Shown here: piece after piece, positions 1,325 to 4,289 of the stretch | Position numbering within the stretch: position 1 is the first letter of the stretch | Layout of the letters: every line of letters starts with the position of its first letter | Source of the DNA: a virus | Lineage: Duplodnaviria; Heunggongvirae; Uroviricota; Caudoviricetes | Reading direction: 5' to 3' (one strand) | Length of the DNA: 4,289 nucleotides | IMG/VR virus record: IMGVR_UViG_2585427750_000005 | The notes under the pieces: generated by a model | What the model was told of the DNA's origin: nothing | The model's input: the letters and a program-made list of their open reading frames with translations, nothing else | The model's database searches: none | Position numbers and translations under genes: made by a program

Positions 1325-1792
1325 TCATCGAAGGCATTGCGTCCTGATGTATTCCTGAAGCGTTCTCAGTGCTGTCTGGTCTCTGATAATTCCGTCCCGG
1401 ACACCGAGAACGTTTCGTCCAGCAACTGGAGAGAGTTCGACGGTGGCATCATTGCCCATGCCGGAGGCGCCGGAGGTTTCGGCTGAGGATGGCACAGGGC
1501 ATTTTCCTTTGACGAGCACCCTGCCACCATTATCAAGCTTGCGCCGAAGAGCATCATTTTCAGCTTTCGCATCAGCTAACTCCTTCGTGTATTTAGCATC
1601 GAGTGCATCAGCAGCACGCTGGCGTTGCTGCATGTCAGTAATGGTGGCGGTCGCCTGCTTCAGCTCACTGACTTTTTTATCGCGCTGCTCTTTGTAGGCG
1701 ATTGCATTATCACGGTAATGATTAACAGCCCATGACAGGCAGACGACGATGCAGATAACCAGAGCGGAAATAATCGCGGTGACTCTGCTCAT
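1325..1792 (-). CDS. Rz: Rz inner-membrane spanin (i-spanin)
   Basis: N-terminal TM anchor [30 protein letters not shown] plus coiled-coil region; the first ~85 aa closely resemble lambda Rz as recalled. Start ATG overlaps the R stop (ATGA). The C-terminal half diverges from lambda. Confidence 0.9.
1366..1572 (-). CDS. Rz1: Rz1 outer-membrane lipoprotein spanin (o-spanin), embedded in the +1 frame of Rz
   Basis: Translation [44 protein letters not shown]...: signal peptide with lipobox V-A-G-C, proline-rich mature region. SD AAGGAG 7 nt upstream of the ATG. Lies entirely inside Rz, the known lambda Rz/Rz1 architecture. Confidence 0.8.
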
Positions 1793-2265
1793 ACCTCAAT
1801 CTCTCTGACCGTTCCGCCTGCTTCTTTGAATTTTGCAATCAGGCTGTCAGCCTTATGCTCGAACTGACCATAACCAGCGCCCGGCAGTGAAGCCCAGATA
1901 TTGCTGCAACGGTCGATAGCCTGACGAATATCACCGCGATCAATCATCGGCAAAGCGCCACGCTCCTTAATCTGCTGCAATGCCACAGCATCCTGGCTTT
2001 TAGGAGAGAAGTCTTTCAGGCCAAGCTGCTTACGATATGCATCCCACCAACGGGAAAGAAGCTGGTAACGTCCGGCGGCTGTTGATTTGAGTTTTGGGTT
2101 TAGCGTGACAAGTTTGCGAGGGTGATCGGAGTAATCAGTGAATAGCTCTCCGCCAACAATGACGTCATAACCATGATTTCTGGTTTTCTGACGTCCGTTA
2201 TCAGTTCCCTCTGACCACGCCAGCATATCGAGGAACGCCTTACGTTGATTATTGATTTCCACCAT
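1789..2265 (-). CDS. R: Endolysin R (lambda-type lytic transglycosylase)
   Basis: Translation [61 protein letters not shown]... is near-identical to lambda R as recalled. The start overlaps the S 3' end by 17 nt as in lambda. SD GGAG upstream. Confidence 0.95.
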
Positions 2266-2572
2266 CTTCTACTCCGGCTTTTTTAGCAGCGAAGCGTTTG
2301 ATAAGCGAACCAATCGAGTCAGTACCGATGTAGCCGATGAACACGCTCGTTATATAAGCGAGATTGCTACTTAGTCCGGCGAAGTCGAGAAGGTCACGAA
2401 TGAACCAGGCGATAATGGCGCACATCGTTGCGTCGATTACTGTTTTTGTAAACGCACCGCCATTATATCTGCCGCGAAGGTACGCCATTGCAAACGCAAG
2501 GATTGCCCCGATGCCTTGTTCCTTTGCCGCGAGAATGGCGGCTAACAGGTCATGTTTTTCTGGCATCTTCAT
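2249..2572 (-). CDS. S: Holin S (class I, lambda-type, S107/S105 dual start)
   Basis: Translation [107 protein letters not shown] is essentially lambda S as recalled. Met1-Lys2-Met3 dual-start motif; three hydrophobic segments; charged C-terminus. Confidence 0.95.
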
Positions 2573-2863: not shown

Positions 2864-3020
2864 TGCAGTACGCGCGGCGGTCAGATACATGACTAGTATT
2901 TTCACTATCGCCTATCTGCTAGCTCGCCATTGAGCTTCACCACAACGATAAGAGCACTGCGCGGCACCTTTCGCCAATTCCGCGAGGTCTGCGAGTTCAA
3001 TGCTCTTACCTGTTGTGCAA

Positions 3021-3062
3021 ATAAAAAAGCCACCGTTGCAACTTAAGAGTCACTAACGGCAG
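3021..3062 (-). terminator. Candidate tR'-like promoter-proximal terminator of the late operon
   Basis: Minus strand: CTGCCGTT (17-nt loop) AACGGTGG, then C, then TTTTTT-AT. 8-bp stem with two G-U pairs and a large loop, as in lambda tR'. The downstream sequence TGCACAACAGGTAAGAGCATTGA resembles the sequence just after lambda tR' as recalled. Confidence 0.4.
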
Positions 3063-3073
3063 CTTACCTTCTA

Positions 3074-3103
3074 ATTATGGCTAAATGGCTAATTGCATGT
3101 CAA
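3074..3103 (-). promoter_or_regulatory. Candidate late promoter pR' with qut-like features (sigma70 -35 TTGACA, -10 CATAAT, tandem repeat in the spacer)
   Basis: Minus strand: TTGACA (3103-3098), 18-nt spacer, CATAAT (3079-3074). The -35 lies inside the last Q codons and the -10 just after the Q stop. The spacer contains a perfect tandem direct repeat TTAGCCAT-TTAGCCAT (plus 3077-3092). A -10-like TAAGCT lies at about +2 to +7 of the predicted transcript, a possible sigma-dependent pause element. Confidence 0.45.
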
Positions 3104-3599
3104 GGCTTTTAACAGCAACATGCTTAACTTTCTCAACACGTTTACGCATTTTGAAAGCATTTTGCATCGGCTGGTATAAAACAAATAATGACGCTTTCAG
3201 GATGTCGTCAATTTCGTTTCTACAGGTTGCCAGTGAAGGTTTTCTCCATCCCTCGCCACCACGTCCACACATCTTGCGTGGCTTTGCAGTCGCGTGATAG
3301 TAGGATGCAATTGCTCGCTTAGATGAACCATGAGCGTAGTAGCTGAGGAGGATGCCAAAGGCTTTTTTGTCAATGTACATGACGGAATCGACGACCTGAG
3401 AAATCAACATTCCATCATCATCATTGCACATTGGCCTTGTCATAACTCTTCCCGGCTCTACGCTCTCCATGAACTTCGCTATTACGCTGCTCATGCGCTT
3501 TTCCAGACGACCTGAATAAACCCATGCGCCCCACAGTTCAAGCCAGCCATTCAGCCAATCGTGCTGTTCTTTGGTGAGGTTTAGTTCTCTTATGCTCAT
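3081..3599 (-). CDS. Q: Late-gene antiterminator Q, non-lambda type (QuuD/Q21/Q82-like family)
   Basis: 172 aa. Motifs LELWGAW, RPMCNDDDGMLI and LLSYYAHGSS align with the WGAW / CCDDD / YY pattern recalled for DLP12 QuuD-type antiterminators. Sits immediately upstream of the late promoter, leader and lysis genes. SD GAGGGG; start ATG overlaps the ninH stop (ATGA). Confidence 0.8.
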   Translation of the reverse strand: MSIRELNLTKEQHDWLNGWLELWGAWVYSGRLEKRMSSVIAKFMESVEPGRVMTRPMCNDDDGMLISQVVDSVMYIDKKAFGILLSYYAHGSSKRAIASYYHATAKPRKMCGRGGEGWRKPSLATCRNEIDDILKASLFVLYQPMQNAFKMRKRVEKVKHVAVKSLDMQLAI

Positions 3600-3784
3600 C
3601 GTCTTCCCCTCTTGTCCTGTTTGACCATCAGGACGCCGTTAACTATTACGTGACGCTCGCCTTTTCTGTCTCGGTTGTACTTGAGCACTGTTCCTCTTGC
3701 GCAGGAAAGCATCCTCGCCACTTCGGTCTGATTGCCTCGTGTCTGGATAAGAAGCTCTGGTATCGTTTGAATTGTGGCGTTCAT
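3596..3784 (-). CDS. ninH: NinH-like small DNA-binding protein
   Basis: Translation MNATIQTIPELLIQTRGNQTEVARMLSCARGTVLKYNRDRKGERHVIVNGVLMV... aligns with lambda NinH as recalled (TIPDMLVEAYGNQTEVARRLKCSRGTVRKY...HAIVNDVLMV). SD GGAG 7 nt upstream. Canonical position directly before Q. Confidence 0.8.
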   Translation of the reverse strand: MNATIQTIPELLIQTRGNQTEVARMLSCARGTVLKYNRDRKGERHVIVNGVLMVKQDKRGRR

Positions 3785-4142
3785 ACGTTCTCCAGTTCGG
3801 TGATTTTATTCCAAGCCGTCCGCCTGGTACTTTCACACCACGAATTACGCGAATGTCATCGAATTGCTCGTCGTCTTCCGCAAATCCGGCGTGGATAAGG
3901 GAGTCGAGTAAACCTTTCAGGATGTTGTCGAGGTCGCGGCGGCGGGAGTCTGGAACGTCTGCGATGACTTTGATGCGGAGTCGTGATTTGGTGAAAATGT
4001 CTAACTTAAGTTGGCGGATGATTTGCTGAACGTCTTTTCGGTATTTCTGGCCTTTATCGCTGATGTAGTATTGGCTTCCCCGTCTTCGCCAGTAGGTATT
4101 CACCGACGGCGGGTATGGAAGCACAAACTGATATTCGTTCAT
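3639..4142 (-). CDS. rusA: RusA Holliday-junction resolvase, with an unusual ~45-aa C-terminal extension
   Basis: The N-terminal ~115 aa (LPYPPSVNTYW..., PDSRRRDLDNILKGLLDSLIHAGFAEDDEQFDDIRV..., GGRLGIK) align with E. coli RusA (120 aa) as recalled. The frame then stays open for ~45 more basic, low-complexity residues that overlap ninH out of frame. Strong SD GGAGG; start overlaps the stop of the upstream gene (ATGA). Confidence 0.85.
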   Translation of the reverse strand: MNEYQFVLPYPPSVNTYWRRRGSQYYISDKGQKYRKDVQQIIRQLKLDIFTKSRLRIKVIADVPDSRRRDLDNILKGLLDSLIHAGFAEDDEQFDDIRVIRGVKVPGGRLGIKSPNWRTYERHNSNDTRASYPDTRQSDRSGEDAFLRKRNSAQVQPRQKRRASRNS

Positions 4143-4289
4143 GACTTAATCTTCCCCTCCTTCAGCAGTATCGCCTGCGTCCTGATCACGCCTTCGAGGT
4201 GGTAAAGTCTGGCGTCTTTGTTGTCGAGAATCCTTGTGCGTCGGTCGATCTCCGCGTGGCAGTCACTACAAGCCCATGCGCCGATCAGG
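4139..4289 (-). CDS. ybcO: Partial CDS (5' end outside window): YbcO-like DUF1364 putative nuclease, C-terminal 49 aa
   Basis: Minus-strand frame open from the window edge to TGA at 4139-4141. Translation LIGAWACSDCHAEIDRRTRILDNKDARLYHLEGVIRTQAILLKEGKIKS matches the C-terminus of DLP12 YbcO as recalled (CxxCH...IDRRT...LEG..RTQ..LKEG.IK). Gene order ybcO-rusA matches DLP12-type nin regions. Not in the supplied ORF track (edge-truncated and short). Confidence 0.55.
   Translation of the reverse strand, partial: LIGAWACSDCHAEIDRRTRILDNKDARLYHLEGVIRTQAILLKEGKIKS

Follow-up and report, generated by a model that had tools for sequence, protein, structure and literature searches.

The window, that is, the whole stretch of 4,289 nt that was analysed, carries a rusA reading frame of 167 codons, and we conclude that the long C-terminal tail of the encoded RusA is almost certainly an unselected by-product of a one-nucleotide contraction of a homopolymer, from A5 to A4, whatever the origin of that contraction. 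The extended frame is a frameshift allele of a well-known prophage gene or the result of a miscalled base, an event of an already known kind, and not a new domain. The features of the locus are as follows.

3639..4142, minus strand: frameshifted rusA ORF, 167 codons plus TAA; residues 1–113 are normal RusA and residues 114–167 are out of frame (ORF list and translation)
3804..3807, minus strand: the lesion, coding A4 (ATA AAA TCA) where relatives have A5 (ATA AAA ATC); frame lost after Lys113
3642..3803, minus strand: out-of-frame tail SPNW...ASRNS, 54 codons, 48 of which are ninH DNA
3781..3783, minus strand: ancestral rusA stop TGA, retained out of frame, in an ATGA overlap with the ninH start (3784..3782)
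3596..3784, minus strand: ninH, 62 aa, intact; Pfam Phage_NinH PF06322 at 83.3 bits (cut-off 29.8)
3081..3599, minus strand: late-gene antiterminator Q, 172 aa; Pfam Phage_antitermQ at 90.1 bits and relatives' annotation
4139..4289, minus strand: 3′ end of a DUF1364/YbcO gene that runs off the window; translation, and annotation in relatives

The RusA reading frame and its tail

RusA-family proteins are dimeric and cleave Holliday junctions in a Mg-dependent manner. The first 113 residues of the window protein were identical with those of WP_001008200.1, and also with the protein of the relative SJC33 minus its ITELENV end. The RusA profile PF05866 matched residues 9–100 with 59.2 bits (Pfam cut-off 22.8), and residues 1–112 aligned to the E. 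coli RusA structures 1Q8R and 2H8C (E = 1e-23 to 1Q8R chain A). All of the residues known for DNA binding and catalysis by RusA, R69, D70, D72, N73, K76 and D91 (PMC10956419), were present in the window protein, in columns that were invariant in a 40-sequence alignment. The C-terminus was different. Whereas members of the family have a complete last β-strand and end at ~118–126 aa, the window protein diverged at residue 114 and extended to 167 aa.

The preliminary description of this DNA had reported a long RusA ORF with a basic tail that overlaps ninH out of frame, and on these points it was borne out: the frame encodes 167 aa, and its last 54 residues are the peptide that had been quoted. 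The tail contains 11 R, 2 K, 4 D and 2 E, giving a net charge of +7. The overlap between the rusA ORF and ninH covers 3639–3784, or 146 of the 189 nt of ninH (77%), with the two genes read in differing frames; within ninH, the tail is read in the frame set one base ahead of the ninH ATG, and it is closed by a fortuitous TAA at 3641..3639. A Pfam search with the tail alone gave no match. The openness of this frame is statistically unremarkable, as it stayed open as far or farther in 26% of the synonymous-codon permutations of the window's ninH allele, with a naive expectation of (61/64)^47 = 0.10. That the tail looks basic and of low complexity simply reflects the residues encoded by this frame of ninH.

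The window carries ybcO, rusA, ninH and Q as part of a lambdoid nin region of the HK97/HK75/HK620 type; in relatives, each of these genes overlaps the next by ATGA. Its gene order and ATGA junctions are the same as those around the 120-aa RusA of HK97 (gp67), HK75, HK620 and E. coli prophages (WP_001008200.1; PF05866, 1Q8R), from which the window differs in lacking one A and in having ITELENV replaced by 54 out-of-frame residues. The ATGA motifs lie at the ybcO/rusA (4142..4139), rusA/ninH (3784..3781) and ninH/Q (3599..3596) junctions, and the equivalent upstream gene of two of the loci analysed below (L126 and L128) gave a Pfam YbcO match. In five annotated relatives, E. coli SJC33 and C3728 and phages HK97, HK75 and HK629, rusA is 363 bp long, encodes 120 aa and shares 4 nt with ninH.

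A one-base contraction displaces the ancestral stop

The coding strand at the lesion reads GGAATAAAATCACC (A4) in the window and GGAATAAAAATCACC (A5) in every relative examined. On the plus strand the lesion is a T4 run at 3804–3807, and the A-run spans rusA codons 112–114. When the window was aligned with the same five relatives, it read GGAAT-AAAATCACC where all five had GGAATAAAAATCACC; this one-base gap was the sole difference in the aligned stretch that separated the window from all of them, the flanks being otherwise near-identical. Upon restoration of the fifth A, the frame encoded a 120-aa RusA ending ...GGRLGIKITELENV, the last seven residues of which are ITELENV.

The ancestral TGA is still present at 3783..3781, and therefore the stop was not lost and is merely out of frame. 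Loss of the stop by a substitution, leading to simple read-through, would explain a longer ORF and nothing beyond it, and this candidate was rejected: the TGA is unchanged in the alignment with relatives, and the divergence from homologues starts at residue 114, which precedes the stop by seven codons. A stop loss near 3775–3785, as the preliminary description had proposed, is thus the wrong mechanism. Its other proposal, a frameshift, was right in kind, the lesion being a one-nucleotide contraction of A5, but not in place, since the lesion at 3804–3807 is 21–24 nt upstream of the old TGA and outside the interval that had been singled out (3770–3790, with the stop at 3775–3785). We propose that, with one A missing from the A5 run, translation would quit the RusA frame after Lys113 and skip the TGA at 3783..3781. 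It would then read 54 never-selected codons, mostly ninH in the wrong frame, up to the chance TAA at 3641..3639.

Rarity of the A4 allele

A megablast search with the rusA–ninH segment (547 bases) retrieved 974 records among 5,426 complete E. coli genomes and 53 records in the phage collection, and the DNA of the relatives was 97–99% identical with that of the window. In both sets, the full-length best matches all spanned 548 bases against the 547-base query, and the extra base relative to the window was present in 107 of 107 high-identity HSPs (46 + 61). When complete E. coli genomes were probed with 68 nt centred on the run, 689 places in 643 records matched; all of these places showed the one-base gap, and A4 was seen at none of them. 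The exact A4 38-mer had no match in genome, viral or metagenome contigs; the A5 39-mer, used as a positive control for these pattern scans, matched at least 120 viral contigs. At the protein level, an exact look-up of the 167-aa sequence among 15 billion collected proteins gave no match. The repaired 120-aa protein was found on at least 1000 contigs, and its cluster comprised 2,481 member sequences. Across the loci that were fetched, the run was A5 in 125 and A4 in five, the latter having been fetched specifically for carrying the frameshift. A scan of the whole window showed that the gap in the A-run is the only indel common to every aligned relative, all other indels being polymorphic among the relatives.

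Selection acts on ninH and not on the tail frame

The pattern of substitution was analysed in 70 distinct ungapped alleles of the overlapped DNA, obtained from 110 relatives and containing 39 variants. Twenty-five of these variants fell at codon position 3 of ninH, which is position 1 of the tail frame. Read in the ninH frame, 20 variants were synonymous and 19 non-synonymous, and the 62-aa ORF was kept in all 70 alleles. Read in the tail frame, seven were synonymous, 25 non-synonymous and seven stop-creating, with a premature stop in 24 of the 70 alleles. In the overlapped DNA, selection thus acts on ninH, and the tail frame is without sign of selection.

The RusA homologues gave a concordant picture. 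In the 40-sequence alignment, 38 of the 39 homologues (47–93% identity) end 5–12 residues past GGRLGIK. The exception is P0023, which runs 16 residues past this motif, and none of the 39 carries the full tail. At alignment position 114 the window has Ser where the homologues have a nearly invariant Ile.

These results bear on the idea, also raised in the preliminary description, that the tail is a real overprinted extension forming a new basic domain. In such a case the C-terminal domain would have been selected and would increase the affinity of the resolvase for DNA. The net charge of +7 on a protein that acts on DNA is in keeping with such a role, as are a frame open for 54 codons and the existence of a natural 129-aa variant, P0023 (13 contigs), that ends nine codons into the same frame. 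We nevertheless regard it as extremely improbable. The extension occurs at none of the 689 places in complete E. coli genomes, P0023 is the only one of the 39 aligned homologues to enter the tail frame, and then by nine codons, and an open frame of this kind is expected by chance in 10–26% of cases. The tail frame gathers non-synonymous and stop variants, with early termination in the 24 alleles mentioned above, and the tail itself, for which disorder is predicted, matches no Pfam family and takes the place of part of a β-strand that is conserved. Both outcomes that the preliminary description had named as refuting its proposal were observed: homologues stop at ~120 aa, at a codon corresponding to 3781–3783, and a single indel sets the window apart from them; and the codon-position test detected no purifying selection in the tail's own frame. 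In place of the hallmarks of dual-coding DNA, we found a frame that is neither kept open across relatives nor under purifying selection, and an extension that the aligned homologues lack and that is otherwise confined to rare, singleton frameshift alleles.

A genuine overprinted pair lies elsewhere in the window, in its lambda-type lysis cassette, which comprises the following genes.

2249-2572, minus strand: holin
1789-2265, minus strand: endolysin
1325-1792, minus strand: Rz
1366-1572, minus strand: Rz1-like ORF embedded out of frame in Rz, with a lipoprotein-signal-like N-terminus

In lambdoid phages, the nesting of Rz1 within Rz is a conserved arrangement of two genes. As with the rusA tail and ninH, Rz and Rz1 are two ORFs on the same DNA in different frames; however, Rz1 within Rz is conserved, whereas the rusA tail is neither conserved nor selected.

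The same contraction in other sequences

A homology search with the 167-aa protein identified a cluster of 11 members (P0016) and a further protein (P0017) that share the break point between GIK and SPNW..., together giving 12 distinct proteins. These are 167 or 161 aa long, each found on one or two contigs. Their break point is the same as that of the window protein, and their tails differ from its tail by 1–6 residues, reflecting other ninH alleles, with some stopping six codons earlier. A4 was confirmed in the DNA of five loci (L126–L130). Comparison over 547 nt showed 2, 8 or 11 substitutions between the window and four of these loci, L126 and L128–L130, which therefore represent separate backgrounds (at least three). 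The ninH gene is intact in L128–L130, and in L126 it is cut short only by the contig end.

The remaining locus, L127 (GCA_013422845.1, QIBG01000001.1 3350746-3361310), lies in a 4.83-Mb contig in which the prophage genes are fragmented, with DnaB split into 247 + 91 aa and many ORFs of 30–90 aa. This fragmentation suggests an assembly rich in indel errors, and the A4 rusA of L127 is probably one such error. One A4 instance lies in an otherwise intact 14-kb contig. Another was recovered in identical form from two separate sequencing runs (ERR10497685 and ERR10498701), an argument for the occurrence of genuine A5 to A4 contractions as well.

Other rare public variants alter the same junction. 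P0020 (171 aa) has an in-frame deletion that fuses RusA ...GIK-I to NinH QTIPE..., and in P0024 (181 aa) RusA is joined to full-length NinH by a frameshift at ~residue 106. P0023, a 129-aa RusA in the NCBI annotation that was found on 13 contigs, reaches its natural stop after nine codons of ninH read in the tail frame. Taken together with the A4 singletons, P0020, P0023 and P0024 show that the rusA/ninH junction is a place of occasional indel variants, none of which has spread.

Real mutation or sequencing error

None of the findings spoke against the frameshift as such. As to its origin, we lean towards the base being genuinely absent from the DNA, as a real mutation. A sequencing or assembly error, in which the genome is truly A5 and encodes a normal 120-aa RusA and the homopolymer was under-called, is a rather less probable but serious alternative, and as regards the nature of the tail it is a sub-case of the same by-product. 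An error would fit a lesion that lies in a homopolymer and an exact A4 allele that is a singleton, absent from all of the collections searched; moreover, the public instances of the contraction are almost all single contigs, and one of them is in the assembly with fragmented neighbouring genes (GCA_013422845.1). Set against this, no other indel is specific to the window over its 4.3 kb, each of the 12 other runs of at least 5 nt matches at least some close relatives, and all of the other genes and ORFs of the window are intact. The lack of any other universal indel and the intact state of the other ORFs argue against a generally error-prone assembly. At the few homopolymer sites of variable length, the window matches its locally closest relatives, which speaks neither for nor against an error. 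The recovery of A4 in the intact 14-kb contig, and identically in ERR10497685 and ERR10498701, also speaks against an error.

To anything more exotic than mutation or error we assign at most a very small probability. One such scheme is programmed recoding, in which a −1 slip of tRNA-Lys on A_AAA would restore wild-type RusA at low frequency; another is an A5/A4 phase switch of rusA/ninH expression. A −1 slip on AUA-AAA would give AUC ACC GAA CUG GAG AAC GUA UGA, the exact wild-type C-terminus, and the contraction recurs on several backgrounds. However, the relatives need no recoding and no stimulatory element is known at the rusA A-run, and five A's are short for a contingency locus. Phase-variable loci have a long tract with both lengths common, in a balanced on/off mixture, whereas here the tract is 5 nt and A4 was found at 0 of 689 places in complete genomes. 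We consider both schemes extremely unlikely.

Predicted consequences for RusA, NinH and Q

For wild-type 120-aa RusA, AlphaFold2 run with the same homologue alignment placed the last strand at 109–117, and the mean pLDDT was 89. For the window protein, the mean pLDDT was 66 and the last strand spanned 109–114, three residues shorter; residues 118–167 had a pLDDT of <50 and no secondary structure, indicating a disordered tail. If the base is truly absent, the predicted product would keep the catalytic core, lose the end of the last β-strand and gain a disordered tail. Such a product would probably be less stable or less active, a weakened or inactive resolvase in a prophage that is decaying or merely polymorphic. 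This putative loss of RusA function follows from the predicted truncation of the last strand; no paper on C-terminal truncations of RusA was found in the literature library searched.

The frameshift may also affect how the downstream genes are translated. In relatives, ribosomes translating rusA would terminate on the ninH start codon; here they would terminate 48 codons into ninH, at a stop 40 nt before the start of Q. With rusA termination moved away from the ninH start codon, translational coupling between rusA and ninH would be broken. The ninH gene has its own GGAG Shine–Dalgarno sequence 11-8 nt upstream of the ATG and so can still initiate independently; a change in the amount of NinH or Q is a matter of speculation. 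That A4 is genuine and recurrent, and either yields a stable and active tail protein with DNA binding altered through the disordered basic tail (+7) or uncouples translation of ninH, and possibly Q, from rusA as a rare regulatory nin variant, seems to us very unlikely.

NinH of lambda is a characterized Fis-like DNA-binding protein in which the DNA-binding residues have been mapped (PMC7166090). The window NinH has Arg40 at a site where 62 of the 70 alleles have C, encoding Ser, and it has Asp57 (KQDKRGRR) where L128–L130 have Gly; both are minor allele differences.

The main use of these results is in annotation. The extended ORF is best described as rusA with a frameshift, either a pseudogene or an error in need of checking, and not as a new resolvase variant, and the intact ninH should be kept. 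Automatic gene calls in L128 (8001-9167), L129 (1511-2572) and L130 (319-1335) give a 167-aa RusA followed by Q, with no ninH called, and the extended ORF appears to mask the real ninH in automatic gene calling. Biologically, this is one more homopolymer frameshift in accessory prophage genes, and it raises no new question on Holliday-junction resolution.

Other features of the window

A tRNA-like 3′ fragment was noted at 2815-2873 on the minus strand, with a GGTTCGATTCC T-loop followed by the 3′ strand of an acceptor stem. Rfam gave a sub-threshold tmRNA/tRNA-clan match to this fragment (20.2 bits against a gathering score of 47), and ARAGORN found no intact tRNA in the window. The close relative C3728 has an annotated tRNA-Thr between Q and holin (L004 2205-2280), and 20 of 53 relatives have an extra base at 2813. 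The fragment is possibly a degraded phage tRNA gene.

A 255-aa ORF at 458-1225 on the minus strand, with a TTG start, is Rha-family or antirepressor-like according to the annotation of relatives. Its N-terminus is probably over-extended, since an internal Met begins MNNHSVIPAFDF.... Relatives vary by indels at ~1000-1170, and this region is accordingly suspected of being largely non-coding.

Downstream of Q lies a GC-rich stem with an A6 run after it (T6 when the coding strand is read; run at 3023-3028, with the flanking stem at ~3019-3046), which looks like a tR′-type terminator. In relatives, the length of this run is 6 in 13, 7 in 33 and 8 in one.
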